DNA of 63,978 bases, from IMG/VR virus record IMGVR_UViG_3300049043_000233, positions 1 through 63,978 of that record; one strand, given 5' to 3'. Positions 4,402 to 60,715 of this stretch are shown piece after piece. Position numbers and translations under genes: made by a program. Within the stretch, counting starts at the first letter, position 1. Every line of letters begins with the position of its first letter. This DNA comes from a virus (lineage: Duplodnaviria; Caudoviricetes). The notes beneath the pieces were generated by a model. The model was not told where the DNA came from. It searched no databases and saw only the letters and a program-made list of their open reading frames with translations.

Positions 4402-4417
4402 CCGACAGGAGCCGCCC

Positions 4418-7355: not shown

Positions 7356-8804
7356 ATGAAGCTGAAAGAACAGGCAAAGTGCGAAAAGATTGCTCGCACT
7401 GGACGAGTGCAAAGCTGGATGGATGATTTGGAAGGCAGGCTTCCGGTGAGCTGCACTGTCTTCGTGGTGGAAGATTCAATGGAAGGAAAAGATGGCATTG
7501 AAGCATCGTGGCGTTTTGTTTCTCATGGTCTTCGCAATGGTGCTGGCGTTGCAGTGCATTTGTCCGAGCTGCGAGGGAAAGGTGAAGAAAATGGTAAGGG
7601 CCTGGTGGCTAGTGGGCCAGTAAGTTTTGGCAAGATTTATTCTGCGCTCAATGAAATCTTGCGTCGTGGTGGCGTCTACAAAAACGGCGCTGTTGTGCTT
7701 CATCTTGATTACAATCATCCCGACATCATTGATTTCATCAATGCTTCCCGTCAAGAACTTCCGTGGGTGAAGAGATGCGTGAATGTTGATGAGCAATTTC
7801 TTGAACAAGCTTCTGAAGAATTGATTGAGGCCTTGCTGAAAGGCATTGCTTCGGGCGATATTTGGCTAAACAAGATTCGTTACGATCGCAATGGAAAACG
7901 CATTCGTCCAAATGTCTGCCTCGAAGTTTATCTTCCTCATCGTGGCACTTGTCTTCTTCAGCATGTCAACATGGGTGCTTGTGGCATCAATGAACTAACA
8001 AATGTTTTTGTTGAAGGCATGCGGCAGCTTTGCGAGCTTCATGCCAATACTGGCGTGGGAGACACTGGCGAATACCTTCCCCCCTCCATTGACAAACAAG
8101 TGGGATTAGGCATGCTTGGCCTTGCTAATTTCTTGGCCATCCATGGCATCTCCTATAAGGACTTTGGTGATGCCCTGGAAGCCTATCTCGACGACGACCC
8201 CCACCCTTGGTGCCATTATTGGGGTGAGAAGCCTGCTGGAAAGGCCGTAGCAGCCCTTGGTCAAGCCATTCATGCTGCCGCCAATATCGCCAAGGCCCAC
8301 AAGATGGAACGAGCCTTCTGCATTGCCCCCACGGCTTCATGCTCCTATCGCTATCTCGATTCCAAAGGCTTCACGACTGCCCCTGAAATTGCCCCTCCCA
8401 TTGGAAGGCTTGTTGATCGGGACTCTGGCACTTTTGGCGTGGAGAGTTTTGACTATGGGGAAGTGGAAATTGCCGCTGAAGTGGGCTGGAATGTTTTCTT
8501 TAAGGTGGCAAATGGCATTGTTGAACTTTACCGGCGCACTGGTCTTTTCCATGGCTATTCGTTCAACACTTGGGGAGATCTCGTCACTTACGACCGAGAG
8601 TTCCTGGAGGATTGGCTAGAATCTTCTCAGACAAGCATGTACTATTCCCTGCAGGTTCTCCCGGACATGCAAAGGAAAGACGATGCTTATGCTGCCCTAG
8701 ACGACTCCTTTAAGAGCATGTTTGGCTTCGAGGACGACGAAGTCAAGGGAGAGGCTGTCGCTTGCAATGTAGAAGCTGGTTTCTGTAGTGCATGCGCTGA
8801 ATGA
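7356..8804 (+). CDS. nrdA: Ribonucleotide reductase alpha subunit, compact cyanophage (P-SSP7/P60-like) class I type
   Basis: PVSCTVF (Cys), NVCLE (thiyl radical N-C-E), IAPTASCS, SMYY and C-terminal CSAC. No ATP cone. Confidence 0.9.
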   Translation: MKLKEQAKCEKIARTGRVQSWMDDLEGRLPVSCTVFVVEDSMEGKDGIEASWRFVSHGLRNGAGVAVHLSELRGKGEENGKGLVASGPVSFGKIYSALNEILRRGGVYKNGAVVLHLDYNHPDIIDFINASRQELPWVKRCVNVDEQFLEQASEELIEALLKGIASGDIWLNKIRYDRNGKRIRPNVCLEVYLPHRGTCLLQHVNMGACGINELTNVFVEGMRQLCELHANTGVGDTGEYLPPSIDKQVGLGMLGLANFLAIHGISYKDFGDALEAYLDDDPHPWCHYWGEKPAGKAVAALGQAIHAAANIAKAHKMERAFCIAPTASCSYRYLDSKGFTTAPEIAPPIGRLVDRDSGTFGVESFDYGEVEIAAEVGWNVFFKVANGIVELYRRTGLFHGYSFNTWGDLVTYDREFLEDWLESSQTSMYYSLQVLPDMQRKDDAYAALDDSFKSMFGFEDDEVKGEAVACNVEAGFCSACAE

Positions 8805-9944: not shown

Positions 9945-10163
9945 TTGGTTCGTTATCGAATAAAACAACGGCCATCCCTTATTCGTCCATGGGAGCCAGT
10001 ATTTGACGTGGAAGAGCGAGTGTGGTGGTGGTGGGAGAGTCGAGGATTTGCATTTTTAACTCTCGATGCAGCCCTTGATCGTTTGCAAGAGATTAGTGAA
10101 GCGCCTCCTCCTGTGGAACGCAAGATTATTTATGAAAAGCATGAGCCCCCATTTTTCCTCTAA
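9945..10163 (+). CDS. Hypothetical protein
   Basis: 72-aa ORF with TTG start. Confidence 0.5.
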   Translation: MVRYRIKQRPSLIRPWEPVFDVEERVWWWWESRGFAFLTLDAALDRLQEISEAPPPVERKIIYEKHEPPFFL

Positions 10164-10166
10164 ATC

Positions 10167-10724
10167 ATGAGCGCCTTTGTCACTTCAGACTTACACCTGG
10201 ATCATGCCAAGATCCTGGAGTTTGACAGGCCTGATGGCTCAGCAATGCGTCCATATTCCTGCCTGGAAGAAATGCAGCAGGATTTAGAAGAACGATGGAA
10301 CCGCAAAATTCATAAAGGCGATACTGTGTATTGCCTGGGTGATATTGCCTTTTCCAAAACTGGCCTGCGACTTATGGAGCGGTTCAATGGGAGAAAAGTG
10401 CTCATTGCGGGCAATCATGATCGCCTCCCAGCCAAGCTCTATCTTCAATACTTTGACGACATTCGCGGGGCTTATTTCCATCAAGGGGACAGCACCATGC
10501 TTGGTGGCCTAATCTTCACGCACATTCCCGTGCATCCCGACAATCTGCGCGGCCATTATTTAGGCAACGTGCATGGCCACTTGCATTGTCACCAAGTGAT
10601 AAGGGATGGTCAAGTGGATCGTCGTTATTTCAACGCTTGCTTGGAAAGAAATGACTTTGAGCCGGTAGCATTGGAATGCATAAAGGCTTATTTCAAAGCC
10701 AATGGAAGAGCGTCGGACGTTTGA
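10167..10724 (+). CDS. Calcineurin-like metallophosphoesterase
   Basis: SDLH, LGD, GNHD, THIP and HGHLH motifs. Confidence 0.9.
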   Translation: MSAFVTSDLHLDHAKILEFDRPDGSAMRPYSCLEEMQQDLEERWNRKIHKGDTVYCLGDIAFSKTGLRLMERFNGRKVLIAGNHDRLPAKLYLQYFDDIRGAYFHQGDSTMLGGLIFTHIPVHPDNLRGHYLGNVHGHLHCHQVIRDGQVDRRYFNACLERNDFEPVALECIKAYFKANGRASDV

Positions 10725-27587: not shown

Positions 27588-30500
27588 ATGGCAGCCGAAA
27601 GCGCAGAACTTCAGCTAAGGGTAAGTCTTGACCTTACAACACTGCGTCGTCAACTTGCCGGCATTGGCACCGAACTGAGCGGGCAAGGCCTTAATCTGCC
27701 TATTGGGTTTGACAGAAAAAGTATTAGTTCTGAATTTCAACGACTCCGCACGTATGTAGGCAATAAAAAATTCAACATTGAAATCAATACAAATTTAAGC
27801 GGTGAAATTGATAAGGCTAAAAATCTAGCCGAAGCAATCAATCAACTTTCAAAAGCTACGCGGGGATTATCTGGTATCAGCAGTGCCGCTGGACCACAGG
27901 GGTTGCGTGGCCTGATTCTTGATGAAAATACCTCACGCAAACAACTTCAAGCACTATACAAATTTGCGCGAGCAGCAAACCTTCCTTTTCAGGAATTAGC
28001 GCGAGGAGCAGCTTCGTCTACCGAAGATTTGAAGCGAGTTTTATTTGCCGGTTTTGGTTCTATTGGTGATGATGCAAAGGCGGGGATTTCCAATGCCCTC
28101 AAAGATGCCGATAGCACGCTGGCTAAACTTGGCCGCGATATGGGAGAGGCATTACTTGGAGGTCTTAGGACTGATCTCGGCATTGCTTCGCCATCAAAAG
28201 AAACTGCAAAATTAGGCAAATTTGCTGCCGAAGGTTTCGAAAAAGGCTTTATAGCCGGCATGATCAAAGCCGAACGCACTATTGCCAGAGCAGTAAGCAA
28301 TGCAGTGATTGGCGCTATTTATGAGGGTTTGACTACTGCTGGCAACATCGCTCCGGCGTTTGCTCCACTAGAACGAGCTCTGGCAGCGCAGATTAGACAG
28401 TCATTCCAACGCGCAATGCACGACGGCATAAAGGGATCAATCTTGCCCGGTGCTCAAGGTGGATTGCTTGGATTGCTTGGTGGCGGGGCGACTGGTGCAG
28501 CCATTGGCGGAGCACGCGCACTTGGAGGGGCGGCGACCGCTGGCCTATCCAGTCTGGCAGGTGGTGGTAGGTTTGAGATGGCCAAGCAACTAGGGCGTCT
28601 AACCATTGGCGATACCTCTGGTTTGACCAACTTTGTGCAAGATGCCACCGCTCAGGCGATGCACCAAGCATTTAGCACGGGCACATTAGGGGCATTGATT
28701 GGCGCTGCTGCAGTGGGCGGAGTGGCTGGTTCTTCCGGCTTTGTCCGAGGGGCCATTGGCTCTTTAACGCGCCAGATTCTTGAAGGCATTGCCGACAGGA
28801 TTCTAGCTGGCATCGCTTCAATTACTAGCGGCGATATTGGCCCCGCAATGGGGCGATTATCACAGGCAATTATCAACGTATTGGTCAGAGACCTGGAAAG
28901 ACGTGTTCAGTCAATGAACATTTCTTTCCCATCGATGCTTCCCGCCCTGCCTCCGGCTTATAGAGGGCTCCCTCAAGCCGGCGGCAATGCCTTTGGCGCT
29001 CTGCCCCCGGCATATCGAGGACTTCCGGGAAGAACCACTTCTGCGTTGCCTCCAGCTTACAGAGGTTTGCCGATGGGAGGGTTTGATTTTGCGGCAATGG
29101 GTGCAATGCCGCAAGGTGGCACAGGCGATAATCAAGGAGGTAAAATCGTCTCCCTTCAAAGTGGATTTATTGTTTCCATGCGCGAGCGTTTTGCTCGTGC
29201 TGCGGAACGCTATTTATTTGGCATTGAAACACAAGTAGTTGACTTGTTTGATTCAGCAGAAGCTGCTGTGCGTGTAAAGATAGATCAGGCTATGGCTCGC
29301 CTTGAATCGCAAATCAGGGCAGGTATGGCGCAAAAAGTTTCCGTGCGCGATTTGGGTAATGTTGTCCAGCCTGCCCTGCCTGGTGCTGTCCCGAAACGTC
29401 AACTAGCACTTCCCGCTGCGGGAGGAACGGGGGAGGTGGAAAGATGCCACCCGCAGGAGGAGGATTTGTTCCGCCCGATGGTTTTCCTGTCGAAGGCATG
29501 CTTGCTCCTAGCCGCCCATATAGACCGGCCCAAACAGAATTGGGCACAGGTTATTTTGCGGCGGGAAAGGCAATCAAGTCTTTTGGGGAAGAATATAATA
29601 AAATTAGGGGTTTTTTGAATCAAAATAAACTTCCGCTGGGAGGCGCCATTGCGGAGGTTGGGGATGAGTTTGGGGTGGCACTAAAGCAGGTTTTCTTGTA
29701 TGGTGCTGCTTACAAAGCGTTGGCTTTCTTTACTGATCTACCAAATCAAGCTTTTGACGCCGCAAAGGCATTAGCCACGTATCAGAATCAACTTAAAGCA
29801 GTTACTAGTGCTACAGGCACTTTTGAGCAATCTACCGCTTTTGTTGAAAATTTGGCTCAGCGTTTTAACGTGCCCCTCGAAAGTGCGCGTCAAGGCTTTG
29901 TCAAACTATATGCTTCAATGGAGCCCGCTGGATTTAGCCAGCAAGAAATCGAAGGATTGTTTACAGGAATTTCCAAGGCAACGGCTGCTTTTGGTCTAAG
30001 CGCAGATCAGGTGGATCGGGTTAATTATGCTTTTGCGCAAATGGCTAGCAAAGGCCAAATCATGGCCGAGGAAGTCAAGGGGCAACTTGGTGACGTGCTT
30101 CCGGGAGCCTTGGCATTGTTTGCCAAGGCTGCCCAAATGAGCATCCCAGAATTTTCCAAGGCGATGGAAGATGGGGCCTTCAAGGCGCAAGCAATGCAAC
30201 AGGTGTTGGGAAATGTCGCAATTTTAATGAACAATAAATTCGGCCCTGCCGCGCAATTGGCCTCCAAAACCCTGCAGGGTGCGTTGAATGAAATACAAAA
30301 TAATTTGAAATTGATGTACGAAAGCTTTACTCCTATTGTGAATGGTTTTGCTTCTGCATTTGGCCCGGCCGCAAATAGTTTGATCAAAGATATTACCACT
30401 ACCATCAAGGTTCTCACTGGCTCTTTTGTCAAGGGTGGCGACGGCCTCGCAACACTTTCTCCGCGAGCTCTGGCTTTTTATGGCATCATTCAACAACTAA

Positions 30501-33500
30501 AACCAGCAATTCAAGCTGCGGCAATTTCAATAGGCAATTTGGCATCAACATTTGCACAGCTTGCCCCGCTAATTTTTACTACCATTGAAGCCGTCTTGAG
30601 ATTTATCGCTTCCCCCTGGGTCGCTTTGCAATTATTGCGACTGCGGCTATTACTGCATTAAATGGTGCCATTACGCTGCTCACCAACGTTGGTCTTTTGC
30701 CAGCGTTAAGTGCTGTTTACAAATTTATCGGTAGCCTCATGGCGATTCCTGCTGCTTCTGGTATCGCTCGACTTGCCTTGGTTGGCCTCAAACTTGCCAT
30801 AACTGGACTATTTGTTGGAGCGATACTCATTGGCCTTGATTTTGTCATTGGAAAGATTTTTGGGATCGGGGAAGCCGCCAACGAAGCGAAGGGTAAAACG
30901 AGAGAATTGGCTTACACCTTAAACGAAATGGCAAACCTCGGGGATATTCCGGGATTGGCCCGTAAAAGGCAAGAAGCGGAGAATGAGGTAATTATTGCCG
31001 AAAGATTGCTGCAGACTTACCAAAAAATGCAGAAGGTTGGTGCGATGATGGGCTGGCAGTCTCTGACCCAACAAGAAAAACAATTTCTCAAAGAGTTTGG
31101 GGCCAAGGATATTGTTGGACAAGCTCGAGGAATTACGCCGGAAGCAGGTGTTGCGTTTGCGGAAAACAAGCTTACTGCGGCCATGGAGAAGAGAGGTCTT
31201 GCGCAAAAAGCCCTGGAAGCGGCGCAGCGAGCGTCCGATCGTGAACGTCAAAAATCAGAACAACAATTACAAAAAATTACCTTTTCGGGTGAAGACCAAA
31301 AGAAAAAATCTCTTGAAAGCTATTACAGCCTTCAGGATCAACTTGCCAAGAATTTTACCCAAGCAGAGATTGAGCGCATTGAAGGTTCTCATGAGCACAG
31401 GGTGAAAATGATGAATCTTTTCTATGACTTGGAAGAGGCTCGGGCAAATAGTTTTCAAAAGGAAACCATTCGTTTCCATAAAGAAGTGTTTAACATCTTG
31501 GCTGATCAAAACTCAATGATGCTGAAGGCTTCCAGTCGAGTTATGGAAGCACGTGGCAGCGTTTCCGGGGCGTATTTGCAAGGAAATATTGGCCCCACCA
31601 GTACCGGCCCCCATTTTGACGTGAAAAAAGTTGGTGGAGGATACTTTCCAAGAAATTATCTTGATCCCTACGTGCAAGTTAACGGACGACCACTTTCCAG
31701 TGGCACGACGGTGCCAGGAGGCACTTTTGCTGGCCATCAGAGGAGAGGTAGCCATGGGTGGGACTATGCATTTGGCGAGGGGCGCTTTGCGGCCACCCTG
31801 GCCGGTGGTGCTCAATGGATGGAAGGCTCCAAAACTGCGCATGGCGAACAGCGACGATTCAAGCTTCCGTCTGGCGAAGAGTTTCAATTTCTTCATGGGC
31901 GTTCGGAAGGCATTGGAGCAGGTGCCCCCAGGCGCGTACCCGGCAGCGAAAAGCGTGATGTTATTGCACAACAAAAAGAACAACTTGCGCTTCAAAGTCA
32001 AATTAACGTAGGCAGGCAGCAGGAGGCGCAAACGATTGAGCGCCTTAAATTGGCCATTGAAAATTATGTGGCCTCTTTAGTGCCAACTGCCGAGCAAGAG
32101 CTACAAAATCAAATTTTGCAAAAGCGACTTGAGCTAACCTCTTCCATTGCCTCCCCTGAAATTCTTGCGGCGCAAACCAGTTACGCTGAGCAGGAAATGA
32201 AAATTGCAACCGCTATTGAGCTTAACAATCAGAGGATCGCTAAACTTTCAACGGAAGTTGACAAGAATGGAAACCTCTATCCAAGTGCGGCGCAAAAAAT
32301 TGCAGTTTTCAGTAAGGCAAATGTTGATCTTCAGCGGTCTCTTCCTGCTTCGCAAATTCAACTTTTAACCAACGAAATACTAAAGCAGTCACTCGCCCTG
32401 AAGGAAAGACTGCAATCCTCCCAGCGAGACGCGGAAGATAGAAGAAAGCTTAACCAGCTAATTATTGGAGGACTCTCGGAAGAGGCGGCTCAGGCAAAAA
32501 TCACGGCCGATCGATTAAGAGAAGACTACGCGACAGCTTTAGGAATTGCCAATGAAGTGGTCAAAAAATACTCTGATGAGCTTGAGATTTTGAATTTGCG
32601 AAAAGCGCAGGGTATTGCATTGACAAAAGGAGAAACAGACGAATACAATCGCCTCAGTGAAATTCTCGGGAAAGCCTTGCGGGCTCGGCAAGACTTGCAA
32701 GGGAAGGGGCCGGGAATCGCAAGCACGGCTCAAGGCATAGAACAGGTAGCAAAACCAAAGCCTGGGGATGCGATTGCCCAGGGTATTGCAGATGCTCAGA
32801 AAAAATTAAATGACCTGACGAATGTAGAAAAGCAAGTGGTTGCTGGAGCCAATGCCATTGGCGGAGCTTTTGGTCAAGCATTTAAGGACATCGCTAGTGG
32901 TTCAAAAACCGTGCAAGAATCCCTCGCCTCGATGTTCCAGAGCATTGCTGATCATTTCATTGACATGGCCGCGCAAATTATCACGCAAATGCTGGTTATG
33001 TACACGCTTAAGGCAGTTCTTGGCCTCTTTGGCGCTGTCGGTGGTCTTGGCTCGTTAGGAGGGGGTGGCGGTTTTGGCGATTTTACGGGTGGTTCGTTCT
33101 CCGCCGGAACCATGACCGTTCCTGGACTGGAAGGGGCTGGCGCACTCTCGGGAATATCCCCATTTAGTTATGCCGGTGTTAAGTTTGCCGACGGTGGCTT
33201 CGTTACCGGCCCAACGCAAGCACTAATTGGCGAAGGTGGTCAGCCCGAATACATCATCCCCGCCAGCAAAATGCAAGCCGCCATGTCGCGCTATTCTGCT
33301 GGTGCTCGCGGGGCCGCCGTCATCCCAGGCGGTGGAGAAAGCAATGGAGGGCCAACGAGCGGGCTTCCCCTTGATGCCTCCTCCATTGACATTCGTTATA
33401 GCGTGGAGCGCATCAACAGCGTTGATTATGTGACCGCAGACCAGTTCCAGCGTGGCATGGCCCAAGCTGCCCAGCAAGGCGCTCAGCAAGGCGAACAGCG

Positions 33501-33558
33501 CACACTCCGCCGCCTGCAGCAATCGCGCTCCACCCGTAGCCGCCTTGGCATGAGCTAA
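27588..33558 (+). CDS. Tape measure protein (split by indels near 29435 and 30615) with internal M23-like domain
   Basis: LGIASPSK, tape-measure domain AFAQMASKGQIMAEEVKGQLGD, C-terminal FADGGFVTGPTQALIGEGGQPEYIIP. Three consecutive ORFs. Confidence 0.88.
28947..29072 (+). repeat. Three LPPAYRGLP peptide repeats in the tape measure
   Basis: Identical 9-mer peptide with synonymously diverged DNA. Confidence 0.85.
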
Positions 33559-42856: not shown

Positions 42857-43369
42857 ATGCCTCCACTCGGCTTCTTTCAAGAGCGACTGGAATACAACGC
42901 GGAAACTGGTAAGTTCACTTGGTTGGGCGATTTCAATGCCAAGCGCGTTGGTCGGAGGGCTGGTACGACTGTTGGGGTCAAGGGCTACAGAACAATTACA
43001 ATCAAAAAGCGCCGCTTTTACGAGCACCGGATTGCGTGGTACATGATGACCGGCGAAGATCCTACGAGTTTTGAAATTGATCACATTAACGGTGACAAAA
43101 CTGACAACCGTTTTTGTAACCTGCGGCTTGCCACCAGTCAAACAAACAAAGCTAACTGCAAGTTGACTGCAAACAACAGTTCTGGCTTCAAGGGAGTTCA
43201 TGCCCGTGGATCTCGCTGGATCGCTGGCATTACTCATAACCGCAAAATGATTCACATCGGCATGTTCAAAACTGCAGAAGAGGCTGCCCGTGCTTACGAC
43301 GCCAAAGCCGTTGAACTTTTTGGTGAATACGCTTTGACAAACGCTCAACTGCAGGAGGTGGCAGCATGA
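42857..43369 (+). CDS. HNH homing endonuclease with AP2 DNA-binding domain
   Basis: HRIAW...IDHINGDKTDNRFCNLR, SGFKGV...W.A.I...IG.F.TAEEAARAYD. Confidence 0.92.
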   Translation: MPPLGFFQERLEYNAETGKFTWLGDFNAKRVGRRAGTTVGVKGYRTITIKKRRFYEHRIAWYMMTGEDPTSFEIDHINGDKTDNRFCNLRLATSQTNKANCKLTANNSSGFKGVHARGSRWIAGITHNRKMIHIGMFKTAEEAARAYDAKAVELFGEYALTNAQLQEVAA

Positions 43370-46129
43370 CTATTCCAGGAAGCGCAAATCCCCTGCTCTT
43401 GACAGCCGCCGCAACTGCGGGAGGCTATTCAATTTCTCGATCCTTGCGGTTCAATTCCGCAGACTCGGCGTATTTGTCCCGCACCCCGGCATCGGCGGGC
43501 AACAGGCGCACTTGGACCTGGGCGGGGTGGGTGAAGCGGAGTGCGTTGGGCAGCATTCAAATCTTGATGAGTGTTGAGGGTAATTCAGACAGCACGACCG
43601 CACAGTTTTGGTTTAGCTCTGACGATAAATTTCGATTTGGCATTGAAACCGCTGATATTTTTGCTTCAAACGCGGTTTTTCGTGATTGCTCCGCCTGGTA
43701 TCACATAATTTTTGCGTTTGACGCTACAAATGCAACAAGCGCGGACAGAATGATTTTGTATGTAAATAACGTCCGTCAAACAACGTCAACATATACAGCC
43801 CCGAGCAACACTGATTATGGATTCAATAGGGCATCAGCAATTCATGTAATAGGCAGGCGCCAAAACAATGCGGACTGGTATTTCAATGGATACTTGGCCG
43901 ACGTATTTATGGTGGATGGCCTCCAACTTGCTCCCAGCAGCTTCGGTGCATTTGACGCCAACGGCATCTGGCAGCCCAAGGCCTACACTGGCACCTACGG
44001 CACCAACGGCTTCCAACTCAAGTTTGCCGACAACAGCAACAACACCGCCACCACATTAGGGAAGGACACTAGTCCCAATGGGAACAACTGGACGCCGAAT
44101 AATTTCCAGGTTTCTAATACTCCTTACGCAAGTTATGCCACTGGAGGCACAAATGTAAAAGCAGTATTTGATGGCTATGCCGACCTTGATCATCGCAATT
44201 TTTTAAGCAGTTCACAAGTTTTTGAATTTGCTTATACACCGGGGCTTGCGTACTCATCAAAAATTGAAATATGGGCATACACAGGTAACGCAACGGACGG
44301 AGCAACAAGTTATCAAATTAATAACAGCGGTTCTTACACAAACTTTAGCGCCGATGGTACATGGGGATGGCTGACAGTAGCAACCGGAAGCGGAACCTTA
44401 ACAAACTTAAAGTACAAAAACAATGCAAACGGAACCGGCATATCTTTTATTGCGGCTATTCGTATTGACTCGACAACGATATTGATTGATGATTCGAGCC
44501 GCATCGACTCCCTCGTGGATTCGCCTACGAATGGCACCGCATCCAGCGGCGGCGATGCTGGTGGAACCGTGGTGGGGAATTACTGCTGCTGGAACGCACT
44601 TGATAATGCGGGAACTCTTGCCAATGGGAACCTTGACTTCAGCCAAAGTTCAGCGGCGTTTAGAAATGTTCGCTCAACGTTTGCCATGTCTTCAGGCAAG
44701 TGGTACTGGGAAGGAACTTTATCCACACTTGGCGGCGCTGCTTATATTGGTATTGGCACAGCAGCAGCAAGTCTCACCGTAAATATTGGCGCATCAGATA
44801 CTTGGGGCTATGTAAATGATGGCAAAAAACAATCAGGCAACACGGCTTCTGTTACCTATGGAGCAAGCTATACAACAGGCGACATAATTGGTGTTGCATT
44901 TGACGCAGACAACGGCACGCTTACATTTTACAAAAACGGAACAAGCCAAGGGCAAGCATATTCTGGCCTCACCTCTGGACCATACTTTTTTATGGTCACT
45001 GGATATAACGGAACGTTATGGGCTGCAAATTTTGGGCAAAGGGCATTTCAAACAGCAGCGCCTGCGAACCATAAAGGAGTCTGCACCGCCAACCTGCCCA
45101 CGCCCACGATCCTTAAGGGCAGCGATTACTTCGACACCAAGCTCTACACCGGCAACGGCAGCACCCAGACAATTAGTGGGCTTGCCTTCGAGCCTGACTT
45201 TGTTTGGGTAAAAAATAGAAGCAGAAGTAGCTATAACGCGCTCCAAGATATTGTCAGAGGATTTGGCAATACATTATTATCTTCAAATGCCACCAATGCA
45301 GAAGCATTTAGCGACGACGGCACAATTAGTGCTGCTACTTCTAATGGTTTTACAGTTTATTATGGTGGCGGCGGCAATACCGGAACAAATACAAACAAGA
45401 ACAATGATAGTTATGTTGGATGGGCGTGGGACGCTGGAACTACAACATCGTCCAACGGATCAGGCAGCATCACTTCTACGGTGAGGGCTAACGCTAGTGC
45501 GGGGTTTAGTGTTGTCGGGTGGACCGGGAATGGTTCGAGTGGGGCGACTGTCGGCCACGGACTAGGTGTAACACCTGGAATGGTAATTATCAAAAACAGA
45601 GACAGCACGGCTTCATTTCGGTGGATCGTCTGGCATCAGTCAATTTCTCAGGCCGTACAATCCAGTTCAACCATTCAACTAACTTCGATAAATAATGTCC
45701 TGTTCTTAGACACAACGTTGGGGCAGTACAATTATTCATTTGACGGCCAGATAAACGGCAGCGCTCAAAATGATCGCCTACTGCTTCGCCCCAGTAGTCG
45801 GGTACAGTAATGGGTTCAGCTACACAGGCAACGGATCGACAGATGGCAGCTTTGTGTATCTCGGATTTAGGCCCAAGCTGGTGTTAATTAAAAGAAGCGA
45901 TTCAACTGGCAACTGGTACTTATGGGATACCGTGCGAAATACGTACAACGTTGTTGGCGAGGAGCTGTATCCAAACCTTTCTAATGCAGCAGCAACAGCA
46001 ACGGATTTAGATCTTCTGAGTAACGGATTTAAACTGCGAAGCACTACCGCTGATTTCAATGCTTCAGGCGGTACTTTTATTGGATTTGCGTGGGCGGAAA
46101 ATCCGTTTAGTATCAGCCGTGCCCGTTAA
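43366..46129 (+). CDS. Tail/receptor-binding protein with ConA/LamG and SPRY domains (frameshift near 45768)
   Basis: WTWAGWVKR, WYHI, FNGYLAD (LamG); SSGKWYWE, GDIIGVAFDADNGTLTFYKNG (SPRY); YTGNGS repeats; ends AENPFSISRAR*. Confidence 0.85.
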
Positions 46130-46853
46130 AGACCTTGCCGGACAACGTTTTGGCAAAATTCGCGTAATCAATCGCGCTCCTAGCGGTTCACGTTGGCAGA
46201 CGCGCTGGAACTGCATTTGCGATTGCGGCAATGCAAAAGTAATGCAAGCCAGCAACTTGACCACTGGAAAAAGCAAAAGCTGTGGTTGTGAATCTGAAAA
46301 AGCAAGGTACACGAATAACGCAAAGGCAAAACTTAGCGAAAAACAAGTGCGTGAAAAATGCAACAAACATGGATTCGACTACCTGCGCGGCTTTAACGGA
46401 ATCCAGAAAAAGGCTTGGTTCCGATGCCAAGAGTGTGAACACGAGTTTGCCATGAAGGCCGAAAAAGTAATTTATGGCGTCAATCAGTGCCCTCAGTGCA
46501 GCATTGGTAGCCACGGATACCTGAACGAAAAGTTTTTTGATGAACGCCCCGAACTTCGTGATATTCCCTGCACGGTTTACCTACTAAAGCTGCGCAACAA
46601 AGACGAAGAATTTTGGAAAATAGGCATCACAAGGCGCACGGTTGCCAAACGTATGTACCAGATTCCCTACGAACTGGTCGAAAGCGAAACCGTCGAAACG
46701 ACTTTTTGGAACGCCTACCTGCTAGAAAAAGATTTCAAGCGGGCAATCAAACGGTATCGCTACACTCCAGCCATTGACTTTGGGGGCTGGACCGAGTGTT
46801 TTCAGCCCGCCCCACAAGAGAACAAGACCAGTGGGGGCTTGACACCGTGGTAA
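46119..46853 (+). CDS. Putative homing endonuclease (zinc ribbons plus GIY-YIG-like C-terminus)
   Basis: DLAGQRFG...W.C.CDCG...SCGC, CQEC/CPQC, VYLLKL...WKIGIT...GWTECF. Confidence 0.7.
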   Translation: MPVKDLAGQRFGKIRVINRAPSGSRWQTRWNCICDCGNAKVMQASNLTTGKSKSCGCESEKARYTNNAKAKLSEKQVREKCNKHGFDYLRGFNGIQKKAWFRCQECEHEFAMKAEKVIYGVNQCPQCSIGSHGYLNEKFFDERPELRDIPCTVYLLKLRNKDEEFWKIGITRRTVAKRMYQIPYELVESETVETTFWNAYLLEKDFKRAIKRYRYTPAIDFGGWTECFQPAPQENKTSGGLTPW

Positions 46854-46913
46854 TGTGGTAAGGCAGCGGCGCGTCAACGCCCTGCCCCATGACCGCCGAT
46901 TGGAGGATCGACG

Positions 46914-47186
46914 ATGACCCAAGATTACACGCATCCCATTACGCCACTGCCAGAGCTGGTGCAGCAGTGGTATGACAAAGCCAAAAAGGACCCATGTGGC
47001 CCAATTAACTGGATTGCCGTTAAGGCTGCACAGTGGGGATCGGACCAGGAGCTGGAGGCGTGCGTTGAATGGCTAGATCGAGAGGGTTGGTCTGGTGAAT
47101 CTAGGCAACTCCGCGCCGCCCGCCGTCCTCTTACTCCCCCTGAGACTATTGAAGTCGACGGATTTACATACAAGCTTGTGCGATGA
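46914..47186 (+). CDS. Hypothetical accessory protein
   Basis: GGAGG RBS; HPITPLPELVQQW...QWGSDQELEACVEWL. Confidence 0.7.
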   Translation: MTQDYTHPITPLPELVQQWYDKAKKDPCGPINWIAVKAAQWGSDQELEACVEWLDREGWSGESRQLRAARRPLTPPETIEVDGFTYKLVR

Positions 47187-47247
47187 TTATCACCTATGAA
47201 GCTCACATAGCTGCACTCGCCCACCGACTTGAGCATCATTGGAATCC

Positions 47248-47763
47248 ATGACTGATCCACGCGACTTGATCCAGCGGTTGGCTGATGAGCTGGAAAAACT
47301 TGACGATCATTATTCTGCCCAGTTGTTTGATCTGCTTGACGAAGCCCGCGCATACCTCGCCCAACCGGAGCCCGAGGGTCCAACGGATGAAGAGATTCTT
47401 GCGCTATCTGGTAAGTACTTTATTTACAGAGGCGACTCGATGGGTGACCGGTTTATTCCAATATCTATCGGCCCTTCATTTGAGCTAAGTCAACAGATGG
47501 TTGATTTTGCCCGCGCCATCCTTGCTTGTTACGGCCACCAGCGCCCCACGCCCCTCTCTCTCACTGAGCGCCAGCCGACTGAAGCGGACTGCGATGCGAA
47601 GGGTAGGTGCTGGTGGGGGCGTTCATCGGATGAGATGTGCAATCCCGATTGGTTTCTAGCGAGTCGCGCTGAAGTTGAGAAGTTTTGCGATGGCTGGCCT
47701 CCCAGCGTGTTTCTCCCCCACTGGGCGCTGCCGACGCCTAACCCCACTAGCGAAACACACTAA
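47248..47763 (+). CDS. Hypothetical accessory protein
   Basis: MTDPRDLIQRLADEL...AQPEPEGPTDEE...DCDAKGRCWW...LPHWALP. Confidence 0.7.
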   Translation: MTDPRDLIQRLADELEKLDDHYSAQLFDLLDEARAYLAQPEPEGPTDEEILALSGKYFIYRGDSMGDRFIPISIGPSFELSQQMVDFARAILACYGHQRPTPLSLTERQPTEADCDAKGRCWWGRSSDEMCNPDWFLASRAEVEKFCDGWPPSVFLPHWALPTPNPTSETH

Positions 47764-47954
47764 TGACTACAACTACCAGCGACCTTCTTGAAAAACTATC
47801 TGACGCATGGTGTAATGCTTTGCAGTCGGATCTAGAGCACGGTGTTAGTTGCTTAAATGCAAGGGCCGCCACTGAGTTCCATCAGAAATACAAAGCAATC
47901 TCAGCGTTTGGAGAGATGCTTAATGACCTTTACATCGAGTATTGCGATGACTGA
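47763..47954 (+). CDS. Hypothetical accessory protein
   Basis: TAATG overlap with the upstream gene. Confidence 0.6.
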   Translation: MTTTTSDLLEKLSDAWCNALQSDLEHGVSCLNARAATEFHQKYKAISAFGEMLNDLYIEYCDD

Positions 47955-48222
47955 ACTTTCACCAGCAGCGCAGGCAGTGCTTGATGGCGCCAAGCGTGCC
48001 AACTGTTATCGAGACGTTGATTTTATGGATGAATCTCGCTGGATTGCCGCCGCCGCCCTTGAGGCACTGGCGGATCAGGTGGTGCCGCATGAACACGAAC
48101 CACCATGTGGAGAAGGTGAGCCGTGGCCCCAGGGTTACCAATTGATGCGCGATGCCCAATGGGAAAAGTGCCAACAGCTTCGCGCCAAAATCCTCGCCAT
48201 CGCCGCCGAGCTGCGCCAATGA
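47947..48222 (+). CDS. Hypothetical accessory protein
   Basis: MTELSPAAQAVLD...ILAIAAEL, overlapping the upstream stop. Confidence 0.65.
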   Translation: MTELSPAAQAVLDGAKRANCYRDVDFMDESRWIAAAALEALADQVVPHEHEPPCGEGEPWPQGYQLMRDAQWEKCQQLRAKILAIAAELRQ

Positions 48223-48282
48223 TTTTTCGACGATTGAACTGAGTCGCTAACCCTGTTCTAAACTTCTACACAACACACAACA

Positions 48283-48609
48283 ATGTCTGAAACTGTTTCT
48301 GTGACCACTATTTGTATTAACGGCGTTGACTATGTTCGCGCTGATTCTGTGCCTGCTGCTCAGCCCAATGGCAACCGCGCCGTGGTTGTTGTTGATCGTG
48401 GCTGGATTTTTGCTGGTGATGTGAGCCGTGAAGACGGTCGCATTCGTCTGAGTCGTGCTGTATGGGTGTTCCGCTGGGAATCTTGCGGTTTTGCCAAGGT
48501 GATTGAGGACCCCTCTAATGCCGATGTCCGCCCTATGGCTGACGTGGACATTCCCGAAGGAGCTGAAATCTTTTGCGTACCCGTAAGCGATAATTGGGGG
48601 CTTGGTTGA
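48283..48609 (+). CDS. Conserved phage hypothetical protein
   Basis: INGVDYVRADS...VVVDRGWIFAG...VFRW, a type usually paired with a Gly-repeat ORF. Confidence 0.7.
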   Translation: MSETVSVTTICINGVDYVRADSVPAAQPNGNRAVVVVDRGWIFAGDVSREDGRIRLSRAVWVFRWESCGFAKVIEDPSNADVRPMADVDIPEGAEIFCVPVSDNWGLG

Positions 48610-48812
48610 TGTTTAGGCCAATCGGCTACGGCAACGGCTACGGCTACGGCTACGGCGACGGCAACGGCTACGGCTACGGCAACGGCTACGGCAACGGCTA
48701 CGGCTACGGCTACGGCAACGGCTACGGCTACGGCTACGGCAACGGCAACGGCAACGGCAGCGGCAACGGCAGCGGCACGTGCAGTCCTAATCGCGGCAGG
48801 AGGATAAAATGA
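48609..48812 (+). CDS. Gly-Tyr/Gly-Asn repeat protein
   Basis: TGATG overlap. GGCTAC/GGCAAC hexamer array at ~48624-48776. Confidence 0.6.
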   Translation: MFRPIGYGNGYGYGYGDGNGYGYGNGYGNGYGYGYGNGYGYGYGNGNGNGSGNGSGTCSPNRGRRIK

Positions 48813-48839
48813 TCAACCCCAGAAGACGCTTCCACTTCT

Positions 48840-49396
48840 ATGCGTGTTCTTATTGCTTGTGAATACAGCGGGCGTGTACGCGACGCTTTTGCCGCCAAGG
48901 GCTGGGACGCTTGGAGCTGTGATCTACTTCCTTCAGAGAGAGAGGTAATCATTACCAGGGACCAGTCGAAGAGATCCTCAGTCAGCACTGGGATTTACTA
49001 ATTGCCCATCCACCTTGTACACATCTGGCCGTCAGCGGTGCTCGCTGGTTCAAAGACAAACAGGCCGAACAACAGACAGCACTGGATTTTGTGCGGCTAC
49101 TACTCAACGCACCAGTGAAACGCATTGCTCTTGAAAATCCGGTTTCAATAATTTCAAGTCGCATCCGTAAACCTGACCAAATCATTCAACCTTGGCAATT
49201 TGGTCACGGTGAGACAAAAGCCACCTGTTTATGGCTTAAAAATCTGCCTAAGTTAAAGCCTACATGCGTCGTTGATGGACGCGAAAATAGAGTTCACAGG
49301 ATGCCCCCTAGTCCAGATCGCTGGAAAGAGCGAAGTCGCACTTACACTGGAATTGCAGAAGCCATGGCGGCTCAATGGGGCAGCCAGCCCTCCTAG
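48840..49396 (+). CDS. Short phage-type DNA cytosine methyltransferase (frameshift in an AG run near 48940)
   Basis: MRVLIACEYSG, WSCDL, AHPPCT (motif IV PC), LENPV (motif VI), RSRTY.GIA.AMA.QWG. Confidence 0.8.
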
Positions 49397-49405
49397 TCAC
49401 CCTCC

Positions 49406-50260
49406 CTACAGAGTCGGCATTTCATATTCTTGCGTTGTGTTGCAATAGTGTTTCCAGATCACCTCTGCACTATTGCCAGCCCACTTTGCCACCTGTGCCA
49501 CTGGAATGCCGGCTTCAATCCAGCGGCTGATTGCCGTGTGACGCAAGTCGTATGGCCTGTAACGATGCGTGGTTAAACCTGCAGCATGAAGCTCTTTGGC
49601 TCGATCGTAGAAGTAACTCTGAAATGAATAACGGTTGTATGGAAACACATATTCATCATTTTTCTCCATCGCATCCAATATCTCAAGCGTCCTACCGTTT
49701 AACGGCACGAGCCTTTTTTTGTTTGTTTTTGTTGAGTTTTTGAGACCATGGGTGAGAGTGTAGTTGCAGTGAACAAGTAATTTCTCATCTTTTACGTCTT
49801 CCCATCGAACCGCTCTCACCTCACCAGTGCGCATGGCCGTTTGAAGCATGAACTCTGCAAACAACGACCATCGTGCTCCCCCTGGGATTTGCTTCGCCTC
49901 CAAGGCGGCCATGAGCACGGAGGTTTCATTGCGAGGAATGACAATCACCTCCTCGTCTGTCTGCGGAGGCTTGGGCATGCGAAAAGTGGTAATTGGATTG
50001 CGCTCAAGATAAGCAATATCCTCGCTGCTCACCCATCGATACAGACTTTTAATGTACATGGCCACCCTTCTGCTTGACTTTACGGGCTTCTGCCCCAGCA
50101 CCCATGCCATCACCTGCCTGCCTTCCTTCAGGTCGGTAATTGGGCAACGGGCCAACCATTTATCCATTTGCCGATAGTCGGCTATCAAACTTGTAGGACA
50201 CAGGGTCACTGCTCGCTCTGCCTTGAAAGCACTCCAGGCCTCTTGCAGGGTGGGTGTCAT
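49406..50260 (-). CDS. Tyrosine recombinase/integrase lacking an arm-binding domain
   Basis: MRTGE (Arg), STKTNK (Lys), PYDLRHT, WAGNS...KHY (Tyr). Likely start MTPTLQEAW at 50260. Confidence 0.9.
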   Translation of the reverse strand: MTPTLQEAWSAFKAERAVTLCPTSLIADYRQMDKWLARCPITDLKEGRQVMAWVLGQKPVKSSRRVAMYIKSLYRWVSSEDIAYLERNPITTFRMPKPPQTDEEVIVIPRNETSVLMAALEAKQIPGGARWSLFAEFMLQTAMRTGEVRAVRWEDVKDEKLLVHCNYTLTHGLKNSTKTNKKRLVPLNGRTLEILDAMEKNDEYVFPYNRYSFQSYFYDRAKELHAAGLTTHRYRPYDLRHTAISRWIEAGIPVAQVAKWAGNSAEVIWKHYCNTTQEYEMPTL

Positions 50261-50324
50261 TTTGAATGTGTTAGCGTGGAATGCAAGTAGAATACAGCCA
50301 CAGGTTCCCGCCGTCCACACTTCT

Positions 50325-50831
50325 ATGTTCATTCTTGATGGCCGCCCGCTGAGCCCAGACGTGCCCTTCACGCACGACGACATTCAATATCCGGCTAACT
50401 GGGTCAGACTCGCTACGCCCGAAGAGCGCGAGGCCATCGGCATCACCGAGGTGCCCGACCCTGAGCCTTACGACCAGCGGTTCTACTGGGGACCCGGACT
50501 GCCCAAGGATCACGATCAACTCGTCGAGCAGTGGACCGCTACCACACGCACCACCGCCAACACCCTGCTGCAGCCAACGGACTGGGTGATTATCCGCGAG
50601 GCCGATAACGGCAAACCCGCTGATCCAGCGATAAAAGCCTGGCGCGAAGACATCCGCCTAGCCACGGGCGTCAAGGTCACGGCCATCAAACAAACAGCCG
50701 ACACCGACGCGCTTGCCGCATACATTACAAGCGCCGCCTACAGCACCTGGCCCAACAATTCTGATGTTCCCATTGCCCCTCCCTCCGGTGGCGATGAATT
50801 TTCCACTAACAGCGTGAGCGGTGGTTTCTGA
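50325..50831 (+). CDS. Tail fibre assembly chaperone-like protein
   Basis: MFILDGRPL...QYPANW...YDQRFYW...LL.PTDW...WR..IR. Confidence 0.65.
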   Translation: MFILDGRPLSPDVPFTHDDIQYPANWVRLATPEEREAIGITEVPDPEPYDQRFYWGPGLPKDHDQLVEQWTATTRTTANTLLQPTDWVIIREADNGKPADPAIKAWREDIRLATGVKVTAIKQTADTDALAAYITSAAYSTWPNNSDVPIAPPSGGDEFSTNSVSGGF

Positions 50832-54830: not shown

Positions 54831-55313
54831 ATGAAGCAAAACAATGGCACTGAAGATCTTCTCTTTTCACTGTCTGTTTTGCGCCCTGGAGAGGCCAAGC
54901 GCCGCTTTCGAAAAAGCATTTTTGAAGATTATCCGCTGCGAGGCCCTTTGGGCCATTGCGCCTGTGCCTATTGCGGCAAGTGGAACGAGAAACTAACCAT
55001 TGATCATATTGTTCCAAAAAGCAAAGGAGGGCCACATTTTGCTAAGTGGAACAGTGCTCCTTGTTGCCTCACTTGCAATGCGGCCAAGAGCAATTTGCCC
55101 TTGTTTGAATGGTGGAGGCCTCAGGCGTTTTGGACAGTCCAGCGCGAAGAGGCGCTGATGAGCTGGATACATGCTCATAGTTTCATTAGCGCACATAGTC
55201 CCATTGGCAGTTGGGAAGAATGGATGCAAGAAACACAACGCATTGTGCCCATTCATGAAGCCAAAGAAAAAGCGGCTCGATTGTGGCCGCTTTCTTTATG
55301 CTTGGCTAGTTAA
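54831..55313 (+). CDS. HNH endonuclease
   Basis: CAYCG...TIDHIVPKSKGG...N..PCC..CN..KS. Confidence 0.88.
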   Translation: MKQNNGTEDLLFSLSVLRPGEAKRRFRKSIFEDYPLRGPLGHCACAYCGKWNEKLTIDHIVPKSKGGPHFAKWNSAPCCLTCNAAKSNLPLFEWWRPQAFWTVQREEALMSWIHAHSFISAHSPIGSWEEWMQETQRIVPIHEAKEKAARLWPLSLCLAS

Positions 55314-58510: not shown

Positions 58511-59275
58511 TCACCCTCTGTCCATTGTGAGCGTAAAGGCCTTGTCCCCTGGATAAAAGGCCTGGAAGTAGCGCTTGACGGTGTCCTCCATAATCCGCTG
58601 CTGACTCACTAGCTCAAAGCCATTCAAATGGACCGTCTGCAACGAGGGCTGACTGTTTTCATCTTCTGGATCAAAGCAGGCAATTGCGCACCAGGCCTCA
58701 TCAATAGGCGTGTCGTACATTTGCTCTGCTGCCATTGAATAGGCTCCCAACTGCCGCTTGTAATCAGCCAGTTGATAATCAGGTTTCTCCTTGTAGCTGG
58801 TTTTCCAGTCGATCAATGCAACTGAGCCATCATTCATTTTTGCCACCATATCTAGCGTGCCGCTATATCCTCGTTGCTGATCAAGATCAAACCAGGACAC
58901 AGCACTTTCGACAAGCACTGGTTCTTTAATGTGTTCAAGAAAGGGATCAATGGCAGTGAAATATGGTTTCCAATCCAATGCCTTTTCGAGATGGTGTTCA
59001 ATGTCTTCTCCATTGAACCAATCCTCGAGAACACCATGAAGCCAGGTGCCACGATTAGCGGCAAGGCGGGTGCGACGGTTTGCTTCGTCATCTCCAACGC
59101 GCTTGCGCCAATTGACCAGAGCCATAATTTTTGCCACTGGTGCCATGGAAGAGAGCACGGTGGTCACGGAGGGAAGCACCATGCCTTCGGGCACATTTGG
59201 AAAACTTTCGCAAATATAGTGGCGCTTACCATTGAGGCTAATGCGCTTGGGCTCGAAGCGTTCAAACGAGGGCAT
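58511..59275 (-). CDS. PD-(D/E)XK exonuclease
   Basis: PSVTTVL, RGTWLH, YSGTLD...IDWKTS, QLGAY. Confidence 0.85.
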   Translation of the reverse strand: MPSFERFEPKRISLNGKRHYICESFPNVPEGMVLPSVTTVLSSMAPVAKIMALVNWRKRVGDDEANRRTRLAANRGTWLHGVLEDWFNGEDIEHHLEKALDWKPYFTAIDPFLEHIKEPVLVESAVSWFDLDQQRGYSGTLDMVAKMNDGSVALIDWKTSYKEKPDYQLADYKRQLGAYSMAAEQMYDTPIDEAWCAIACFDPEDENSQPSLQTVHLNGFELVSQQRIMEDTVKRYFQAFYPGDKAFTLTMDRG

Positions 59276-59444
59276 GGTCCCGGCCAGGGCAAGATCGTAG
59301 CAAGCCACTATGGCCCCTATCGGTTGGGAATGCAATAGCCTCCACTGCTGTAATAGCCGAGAGGGCACGATCCATTTTTAATAATGGGCTGCTGACAGGC
59401 GATTGCTGGGGCGCAAAGCAGAACGATGGAAATGAGAATGGTTT

Positions 59445-59771: not shown

Positions 59772-60715
59772 CTACTTTTTTCCCTCCACAAACACCTCCA
59801 CGCCTTTGATGGCTGCAGCAACATCCCCCTCAATGCAAATGGCACGCAGGCAGTCAATCTCCTTAGCCATGTCCGTCTTGGTGATTTTGATGCCCTGATT
59901 TTTTGTCCAAGCGGTGACCATGGTGGTCACGACATTGGCAAACATGGCCTTATCCTGAATGTCATCGCCTTTTGCAAGTCCCAGGGCCTCAAGAGCATTC
60001 TTGCAGGCCATCATGCTTGTGCGCCGATCTGCCAGGCCCAGGGGGTTGGCCTCTCCGAAGCTAAGAAGCGCTGCCTTGCCATCAAACTCACTGGCTCCAT
60101 TGGCGGGAGTAATCCCTCCTTCTCCAGCAGTTGAAACAGGAGCTTTAGCTCCTTCCGTCTCCTTCTTTGTCCGCGAAGGAGGCTTCGGGCCTTCCTGTTG
60201 GAGCGGGAGTTTGGGCGTTGCTTCTTCATCGGCTTTGGGAATGTCTTCACCTGCGTAGAGTTTGAGGCCAAGGCCTGTGAAGGTGGCAATGGCCTTTACG
60301 CTGGCGCGTTGGATGTTGTCGCTGACAGCACGAGCATCGAGTTGCTTAAGGGCCTTGTGCGTGTTGTCCATGAGCGGAAACACCAGCGCAGGCGTGCGCT
60401 TGATGCCGTCCGTCAGATAGGGACGCAGCAGCCAACAGCCCTCTTGGCCAAATACGGGCCAACCAGCACTGCTTTGCTCAAAGGCCACGAAAAAGCCAGG
60501 GAATTGCTCCTTGAGGTAGCGAAAGGCAAAGGGCCATGACAAATAGGATAGGCCTTTGTAGTTCTTTTCTACGTGCTCTCCAATGGGAAGCTCGTAGGCC
60601 TTCGTGAAGGCTTCTGGACTGATCTCCAAGGGGCGAAAATGCCGAGATGGCGCTCGGTCATCATTGCAATTGATGTTTCATCCATGGAAAAATCCTCAGG
60701 GCGATAGGTGAGCAT
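59772..60715 (-). CDS. Sak/DUF1071 (Rad52-like) single-strand annealing protein; probable indel near 60630
   Basis: HVEKN..GLSYLSW..A, FPLMDN, QRASVKAIA..GLGLKLYAGEDIP. Confidence 0.8.

Follow-up and report, generated by a model that had tools for sequence, protein, structure and literature searches.

The present analysis concerns the linear, 63,978 bp stretch of viral DNA that constitutes the complete IMG/VR record IMGVR_UViG_3300049043_000233 (hereafter, the window), and in particular the slot between its tail-fibre gene and the gene starting at position 50325. Here, a block of seven co-oriented small open reading frames (ORFs; 46914-49396) lies between the fibre and endonuclease-like genes on one side and a convergent tyrosine recombinase gene (the integrase gene) on the other. 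This layout had been described, at the same coordinates, in a first-pass annotation of the sequence, which proposed that the recombinase captures or shuffles the small genes in the manner of an integron or a shufflon. We observed that the slot contains 0 to about 10 genes in related phages, that these genes are present or absent from one relative to another, that a short sequence, which we call the joint, recurs among them in direct orientation, and that breakpoints of homology fall on joints. The array and its joints proved to be independent of a recombinase gene in cis. The explanation that we favour, with a probability of about 0.62, is that the slot is an integrase-independent, hyperplastic accessory island with portable joints, of which the integrase gene is itself cargo. 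The earlier observation is partly confirmed and its interpretation partly supported.

In the orientation of the fibre gene, the joint is composed of a C-rich hexamer, a stop triplet, nine bases and CT; it is about 20 nt long, and its conserved part is asymmetric. The stop triplet is usually the stop codon of the upstream gene, and after the CT there are a few pyrimidines and then the next ATG. Two classes were distinguished, class A following the fibre or endonuclease gene and class B following the cassette genes. A search of viral contigs with the recombinase recovered 29 integrase loci, and the 18 nt following the integrase stop fit the joint pattern in 15 of their 19 distinct variants; in the remaining four, the joint is displaced twice (by 12 and 33 nt), degenerate once and absent once. 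In the fibre-sense reading, the opposite-strand stop codon of the integrase is located directly after the nine bases, in the position of the CT. Over 13 arrays, 32 matches were in the fibre sense versus two weak matches in the opposite one. In each of the 13 class B sites listed for the relatives, and at the end of the methyltransferase gene of the window, the stop triplet is where the preceding gene really terminates, and in five junctions the next ATG came 12-14 nt later. Where the flanking genes encode proteins of only 50-80% identity, the class A joints between them are conserved as non-coding DNA, and they are kept even where there is no ATG close downstream; in the window, the class A joint runs through the last codons of the endonuclease-like gene. 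Judged by eye only, the joint showed neither dyad symmetry nor inverted binding elements around a 6-8-bp overlap.

To rank the sites of the window, joint matrices built from the relatives alone were applied to its 117,920 18-mers on both strands. The first matrix gave 19.3 to the site at 46810-46827, versus 13.4 for the next best in the whole window, and this strongest joint was absent from the list of the first-pass annotation. With the class B matrix, the site at 48817 scored 23.6, above the maximum (17.8) and the 95th percentile (14.9) of the null distribution from 60 simulated genomes. The site at 49388..49408 represents the right edge of the array, and the equivalent position by the integrase stop is conserved in relatives. 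The five sites proposed earlier, described as inverted arms around a nine-base core, are all present as quoted. Three of them (48821, 49394 and 47748) correspond to the joints of ranks 2, 9 and 57, and the other two, the site at 48242 (rank 11,169) and the half-site before 50325 (50311; rank 48,740), are at background level, as is a TAG-N9-CTA sequence at 48614 (rank 22,806). The inverted arms of 3-5 nt are not what is conserved. A chance origin was rejected for 46810, 48817 and 49388, and more weakly for 47742; it was accepted for 48242, 48614 and 50311. TAG-N9-CTA occurs five times in the window and three times in the region, where the mean after shuffling was 0.27 and none of 300 shuffles reached three. 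The degenerate form WAG-N9-CTW, which the first-pass annotation had put forward for testing, was not significant (five versus 2.2 expected, with 8% of 500 shuffles reaching five). As had been predicted, the motif recurs at the array edges and at some internal junctions; the junctions of F2 with c47239, of F13 with F3 and of c48283 with the repeat ORF lack a joint, and the intergenic gaps in the window range from -98 to 60 nt.

Comparison of the integrase loci revealed how the content of the slot varies. In about ten distinct loci, only 18-36 nt separate the fibre stop from the integrase stop, with a class A joint between them, and in the others 0.1-3.2 kb of differing genes are found in this interval. 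Locus L004 has no array, and its integrase stop directly adjoins the endonuclease gene and the class A joint of that gene; the window has the same endonuclease gene and joint, with 79% identity at the DNA level across 471 nt, followed by a 2.57 kb array, a class B joint and then the integrase stop. Five other loci (L006, L013, L026, L027 and L030) have a class A joint on the fibre side and, except for L013, a class B joint on the integrase side. Families F2, F3, F13, F21 and F22 recur in varying number and order. A single stop-to-ATG spacer was found in three unrelated gene pairs, F2 and F3 in L026, F21 and a 24-codon ORF in L030, and the repeat ORF and the methyltransferase gene in the window. 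F21 and its joint touch the integrase gene in L027 and are 1.6 kb away from it in L030; the block common to these loci (203 nt, 94% identity) ends exactly after the CT. Likewise, the block of homology between L028 and the window begins at 47741, on the 47742 site. When the ends of homology blocks of at least 60 nt were counted inside seven arrays, 24 of 106 were within 10 nt of a joint, compared with 7.7 +/- 2.6 for random positions (maximum of 20 in 2000 draws). The array is therefore cassette-like, with gene content and order that vary between relatives, and several breakpoints fall on the motif, as the first-pass annotation had anticipated; none of the findings that it had named as speaking against its proposal was obtained, since gene content is not fixed, breakpoints are linked to the motif and no attP/attB pair was found. 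Among Logan contigs from two sequencing runs, pieces of 0.3-2.9 kb from run X1 agreed with the window, and neither a join spanning the array nor a circle junction was detected.

The strongest evidence about the role of the recombinase comes from relatives that lack it. A search with the 50325 gene gave 166 relatives; we retained the best 80, most of which have no recombinase gene, and where the distance from the fibre gene to 50325 is 23-77 nt, there is no room for one. In 50 distinct integrase-less loci, the end of the fibre gene and the beginning of 50325 could both be seen. A joint was found at the same spot in 31 of these 50, compared with a background rate outside the slot of 49 hits in 914.5 kb of strand. 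The slot is near-empty in 31 loci, 14 of which keep the class A joint, and the other 19 contain inserts of 0.16-1.7 kb, 17 with a class A and 13 with a class B joint. These inserts include homologues of F2 (nine hits), F3 (two) and c47239 (one). On a tree of the 50325 protein (78 rows, 165 columns, quick IQ-TREE run), the presence of the integrase, known for 17 rows with and 52 without it, requires at least 11 changes, five of them forced by starred branches, and the closest rows to the window are without integrase. Insert size also varies inside starred clades that have no integrase: 56, 736 and 1330 nt in L070, L044 and L046, and 68, 161, 293, 613, 824 and 953 nt in L090, L101, L089, L094, L081 and L110.

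The converse was observed in metagenomes. From the best 80 of at least 256 further integrase stretches we obtained 71 distinct loci, 70 of them with enough downstream sequence; a joint was present within 40 nt of the integrase stop in only 25 of the 70, and 45 had none. At the threshold used, 26 of the further loci do not have 50325 upstream. Thus, either of the two, joint or recombinase, is found in the absence of the other, and the idea that the recombinase captures or shuffles the genes of the array was not sustained. A joint-like sequence also abuts the integrase start in L008 and L018 (score 16.8) and, by eye, in L004 (matrix score 3.3); with joints at both of its ends, the integrase gene looks like another insert of the slot. 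In L029, positions 10001-10342 keep only residues 1-94 and 265-325 of the integrase, next to an intact joint. With this internal deletion, it looks like a copy in decay, consistent with repeated loss.

Regarding the recombinase itself, it matches PF00589 with 65.5 bits, and its nearest named relative is the integrase of the freshwater Synechococcus phage S-LBS1 (284 aa, 64% identity). Because the relatives and the S-LBS1 protein align from Met42 (50260), the product is probably 284 aa long. The conserved R, K, R and Y columns, which we take to be the catalytic residues, are invariant in 13-14 relatives. An NCBIfam scan (E <= 0.01) returned only XerD, XerC, PRK00283 and XerA, at 27-32 bits versus cut-offs of 220-335, and no integron-integrase model. 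A low-confidence structural model (mean predicted local distance difference test, pLDDT, of 58; 14 sequences) shows four N-terminal helices (residues 5-78) followed by the catalytic domain; a fold search with it gave XerA, lambda Int 75-356 and Tn1549 Int as best matches, with IntI (2a3v) in 38th place. By sequence, no solved relative was found with the single sequence, and a profile gave one weak match (3nkh, E = 0.005). No Pfam N-terminal integrase domain was found at E <= 0.01. The earlier suggestion of an arm-less recombinase is consistent with these data, that is, with two predicted domains, one helical and core-binding and the other catalytic, as judged from a weak model and from the absence of Pfam N-terminal domains.

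We also looked for signs of ordinary integration. In one genome for each of 185,579 species, a first scan for integrated copies yielded nothing, and a profile scan yielded only two contigs from metagenome-assembled genomes (MAGs), both phage-like and with an S-LBS1-like arrangement. No tRNA gene was detected in the window or in 38 loci. In agreement with the first-pass annotation, no repressor or excisionase matched any of the 23 ORFs of 42.8-56.4 kb. In the 12 other integrase contexts sampled (L149, L161, L168, L173, L178, L186, L191, L193, L195, L138, L136 and L118), all neighbours were phage genes, including those for endolysin, tail fibre, sigma factor, HNH endonuclease, ferredoxin and dCTP deaminase, with no bacterial genes and no tRNA. 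Exact 8- and 10-mers in the integrase flanks were shared by at most 21 of 83 loci and corresponded to the joint, the fibre end or 50325 coding sequence; the best 8-mer (21 of 83) is coding sequence of the neighbouring gene. For S-LBS1, according to the available part of the published account (Zhong et al. 2018, PMC6157547), induction with mitomycin C gave no evidence of integration.

Under the reading that we favour, the slot is a fixed location, between the fibre stop and the start of 50325, in a widespread freshwater cyanosiphovirus-like lineage, and it can be near-empty (23-77 nt) or contain a homing endonuclease gene, one to about 10 ORFans, a methyltransferase gene and a reverse-oriented integrase gene beside 50325. 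Co-infection may generate new combinations, with joints recombining with joints and conserved flanks with conserved flanks. The Sak-type annealing protein of the phage, together with its exonuclease, would be the likely agent; alternatively, the repair of breaks cut by the resident homing endonucleases could be responsible. The joint would persist by doubling as a spacer for stop-to-start translational coupling, in an operon whose internal promoters and terminators do not exceed chance: between 45800 and 51000, two promoter-like sites were found versus 3.9 expected, and five terminator-like sites versus 6.1 expected, none of them at a joint. The integrase carried as cargo could be an ordinary integrase, or a gene with another role.

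Several points weigh against this explanation. At about 20 nt, the joint is a short substrate for homologous recombination to act on efficiently, and no recombination intermediates were seen. The count of block ends includes repeated shared breakpoints, so that the 106 ends are not independent, and 82 of them are away from joints. The integrase-bearing and integrase-less sets came from different queries, and they cover the best 80 of the 166 relatives of 50325 and the best 80 of at least 256 further integrase loci. The tree is based on a single protein, which may itself recombine. An integrase gene bracketed by joints can be claimed by either model. Finally, the integrase is always in the same position and orientation in the slot, and it has diverged broadly in step with 50325; the integrase may therefore be old and have been lost many times, and the integrase-less arrays could then have been inherited from, or exchanged with, integrase-bearing phages. 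The integrase could also act in trans during co-infection.

We consider it unlikely that the joint is an expression signal only, i.e., a gene end with a coupling spacer and no role in recombination, with the variation of the slot arising from illegitimate recombination, homing-endonuclease traffic and selection for diversity near a host-range gene. The coincidence of the triplet with real stop codons, the ATG that follows 12-14 nt later in five junctions, the lack of internal promoters and terminators above chance, the two homing-endonuclease-type genes that flank the fibre gene, and the block ends that are away from joints all agree with it. However, unrelated genes share their last two codons and the spacer, which argues for a portable sequence and not for convergence; block ends are enriched about threefold at joints; and the class A joint is conserved as non-coding DNA even without a nearby ATG. 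Quite unlikely, in our estimate, is an integron-like mechanism, in which the recombinase would use the joints to excise and insert cassettes, and its own gene, in cis or in trans during co-infection, and the integrase-less arrays would be products of earlier or trans action. The direct repetition of the joints is what cassette excision needs, the joint abuts the integrase stop in most variants with that stop at the position of the CT-A triplet, and the junctions predicted for insertion of a circle into a site match those of L027 and L026. Moreover, the integrase is patchily distributed, as a mobile cassette would be; its two domains, as modelled, resemble those of recombinases that use simple sites; and neither an integrated copy, a tRNA nor a bacterial flank was found here, nor does the available part of the S-LBS1 account show lysogeny (PMC6157547). 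Against it, joints occur in 31 and arrays in 19 of the 50 integrase-less loci, arrays vary inside integrase-less clades, and 45 of the 70 further integrase loci have no joint. In addition, the joint lacks by eye the symmetry or inverted elements noted above, no attC-like hairpins were found, with gene gaps of 14-60 nt, and no k-mer is common to the integrase flanks across contexts. A new type of cassette system, in which an arm-less recombinase bracketed by joints would excise and insert stacked cassettes in cis or, during co-infection, in trans for phages without it, appears improbable to the same degree.

The least probable of the explanations considered is an ordinary temperate module that integrates through an attP located in or beside the island, the small genes being morons next to attP. 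The integrase belongs to PF00589/phrog_1, its putative catalytic Arg, Lys and Tyr positions are invariant, and the foreign-looking first 4.8 kb of the window (73% G+C) could be a host flank. In contrast, the survey of 185,579 species gave no integrated copy, its only two hits being phage-like MAG contigs; no tRNA was present in 38 loci; all 12 other contexts consist of phage genes; repressor and excisionase matches are missing from the 23 ORFs; and the G+C junction is 44.6 kb from the integrase and looks like a misjoin. Since integrase-less phages keep the class A joint, this joint is not an integrase-specific attP.

Table 1. Features of the slot and related genes in the window (ranks are among the 117,920 18-mers of both strands)
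Feature	Position	Strand	Remarks
Tail-fibre gene, LamG/SPRY + DUF7483	43366..46129	+	PF00622 and PF24299 split over two ORFs; phrog_19943, phrog_24898
T5orf172/treble-clef zinc-finger endonuclease-like gene	46059..46853	+	PF10544, PF14311, phrog_681
Class A joint	46810..46827	+	Rank 1; left edge of the array; C-rich hexamer, stop-like triplet, nine bases, then C
Leader of the c46914-family gene	46828..46913	+	81-92% DNA identity across relatives
Cassette gene F2 (c46914 family, phrog_32006), 90 aa	46914-47186	+	1-3 copies per array in relatives, with or without integrase
Cassette gene c47239, 174 aa, no family	47239-47763	+	Homologues in integrase-less L046 and L095
Joint-like site, moderate score	47742..47762	+	Rank 57; directly before ATG 47763
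Cassette gene F13, 63 aa	47763-47954	+	86% identity to the L028 copy
Cassette gene F3 (c47857 family), 91 aa	47947-48222	+	Start overlaps the stop codon of F13; recurs in relatives, whether or not they have the integrase
Cassette gene, 108 aa, no family	48283-48609	+	No relative found among the loci
Gly/Tyr/Asn repeat ORF, 72 aa, coding status uncertain	48594-48812	+	On the 12-nt tandem repeat 48599-48806
Class B joint with pyrimidine spacer	48817..48839	+	Rank 2; directly before ATG 48840
DNA methyltransferase gene, two frames	48840-49396	+	phrog_757 on both halves; weak PADLOC type II methyltransferase match
Class B joint	49388..49408	+	Rank 9, score 15.8; between methyltransferase stop and opposite-strand integrase stop
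Tyrosine recombinase gene (PF00589)	49406-50383	-	Convergent to the array; 284-325 aa
Right anchor gene	50325-50831	+	Directly after the fibre gene in most relatives
Exonuclease gene	58511-59368		
Sak-type annealing protein gene	59772-60629		

The individual genes of the slot were also characterized. According to synteny in relatives, the stop of the fibre gene is the left anchor of this hot spot. The gene is read in two frames, with a change near 45760-45770 that adjoins a run of A, and the relatives read straight through it. Inside the fibre gene, at 45789-45806, there is a class-B-like sequence (score 12.7-14.6) that there encodes APVVGY, and a similar one lies some 340 nt upstream of the fibre stop in L006, L013, L030 and L010. 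Locus L014 retains, next to the joint, a remnant of the final eight codons of the fibre gene, followed by a different protein of 509 aa. C-terminal swapping of the fibre may proceed through the same short homologies. The endonuclease-like gene is probably a free-standing homing endonuclease gene; it is present or absent between relatives and, among the integrase loci, its homologues were found only in L004 and L030. Two HNH endonuclease genes (42857-43369 and 54831-55313) border the fibre-lysis region; the protein of the former is 98% identical to its L028 copy, whereas the neighbouring fibres are only about 40% identical, which indicates recent homing. On the right side, the protein encoded at 50325-50831 is 30% identical to an S-CRES3 protein annotated as 'tail fiber assembly protein'.

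The leader that precedes genes of the c46914 family is more conserved than the genes themselves. When positions 46850-46913 were compared with the leaders of L006, L013, L027, L030, L035, L041, L044, L046, L076, L081, L091 and L110, RNAalifold predicted from the 13 sequences two hairpins with 21 pairs, three of which have changes on both sides, and the second predicted hairpin covers the GGAGG upstream of the ATG. No Rfam family matched this leader, which on sequence grounds is a candidate cis-regulatory RNA. Over 42-52 kb, the Rfam search gave no family and a single chance-level small RNA match. The repeat ORF lies on twelve copies of the 12-nt unit, and since many short contigs of run X2 match this tandem repeat alone, the repeat is common in other organisms. 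Apart from it, no long direct or inverted repeats bracketing cassettes were found. The frame change of the methyltransferase gene is within an (AG)5 tract (48935-48944), where the upstream frame ends in ...PSERE and the other continues GNHYQGPVEEIL...; a Logan contig of run X1 matches the window at this point, and the tract could be a slippage-prone on/off repeat, the mark of a pseudogene or a shared read error. In the search for defence or anti-defence functions among the cargo, PADLOC gave only weak methyltransferase matches, and an Atlas look-up of the 174-aa protein (47239-47763) returned only leads below 0.9.

The window has an estimated completeness of 89% (CheckV) and, from about 4.8 kb to its end, it represents a siphovirus-like phage of about 50% G+C. 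It encodes terminase, portal, protease, capsid, tape-measure and tail proteins, together with ribonucleotide reductase (RNR), ThyX, dCTP deaminase, a Sak-like annealing protein, an exonuclease and a primase/helicase. In the major capsid protein, it shares 86% identity with Synechococcus phage S-CBS4. In one run labelled as lake water metagenome, 85% of the sampled words of the region were present. Positions 1-4820 have 73% G+C, with a sharp fall at about 4800-4820, and encode a copy of a hypothetical protein of 1325 aa (P0001) spread over five frame segments. In these 4.8 kb, neither Pfam nor PHROG gave a match, and one ORF was unmatched in the phage collection; relatives of the gene at 5676-6341 that cross the G+C junction were sought and none was found. 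The junction is within the replication region, and two relatives have 17-18 kb of phage genes between the helicase and RNR-beta genes, where the window has the junction. The GC-rich left end is probably an assembly misjoin, a host flank being less likely. Other genes are also split, namely the tape-measure gene (27588-33558, three ORFs) and the RNR alpha gene (7356-8804). Together with those of the fibre gene and the left end, these frame changes suggest insertion-deletion errors of the assembly.

If the favoured reading is correct, this slot would clearly exemplify, in phages that are not T4-like, the shuffling of gene modules at a short and portable junction, and would provide a concrete sequence rule for the sites at which accessory genes enter and leave these genomes, with F2, F3, the methyltransferase and the integrase marked as exchangeable cargo. 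The island adjoins a host-range gene of abundant lake phages (166 contigs with 50325 and at least 256 metagenome stretches with the integrase). These results also sharpen the question raised by S-LBS1, namely, an integrase family found in the fibre-lysis region of many phages and never seen integrated. More generally, the presence of a recombinase next to an array should not be taken as evidence that the one drives the other, and relatives without the recombinase are the decisive control.

The defining features of integrons and shufflons, to which the region had been likened, were looked for and are absent. As in an integron, a tyrosine recombinase gene is found beside co-oriented, small and unrelated genes of variable content, with a repeated site at the cassette ends. 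However, the array converges here on the 3' end of the recombinase gene, the 5' end of which overlaps gene 50325, whereas an integron array diverges from the 5' end, on the attI side. Integron cassettes each end, on the 3' side, in an attC site, which is an imperfect inverted repeat of about 57-141 nt, and a repeat search detected here no attC-like repeats, the best inverted arms being 70-78% complementary and kilobases apart. IntI-type integrases are set apart as a clade and have an additional segment within the catalytic domain; the recombinase of the window matched no integron-integrase model, and arrays and sites exist here without any recombinase. The shufflon and fibre-inversion systems (Rci/sfx; Gin, Cin) are similar in that the recombinase gene adjoins a host-range (fibre) gene, but they invert alternative C-terminal segments of fibre or pilin between inverted repeats, and the sites here are all direct. 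None of the genes located between these sites resembles the fibre gene, nor were alternative segments of the fibre found in inverse orientation.

In S-LBS1, according to the available part of its description (PMC6157547), the integrase gene also follows the tail-fibre gene inside the structural module, and neither integration nor induction was demonstrated. It differs in being co-oriented with the fibre gene and in lacking a joint after its stop, and the rest of the window resembles S-CBS4 instead. In lambdoid and other temperate phages, morons are located between conserved late genes, and short boundary sequences are used for exchange. The slot resembles this mosaicism in having accessory genes between conserved late genes and short conserved boundary sequences, but in the present phages a single slot accommodates many stacked cassettes, and one and the same joint recurs within an array.

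The closest known system is the modular shuffling mediated by promoter early stem-loop (PeSL) elements in the hyperplastic regions of T4-type phages, a subject that Comeau et al. 2014 (PMC4122927) reportedly also treated. The PeSL consists of composite early promoters, of the sigma-70 type, and terminator stem-loops, and mini-circles have been demonstrated (Arbiol et al. 2010, PMC2839356). As far as the accessible part of that paper describes it, both systems have clusters of small, non-essential ORFans at fixed positions between conserved genes, direct repeats of a short conserved motif between these ORFans, and insertions, deletions or replacements that end at the motif (here, L004 versus the window, L027 versus L030 and L028 versus the window), and neither needs a dedicated site-specific recombinase. 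The joint differs in kind from the PeSL, since it is about 20 nt long, has no promoter- or terminator-like features, includes a stop codon and is placed 12-14 nt before a start, and the phages that carry it are siphovirus-like and not T4-like.

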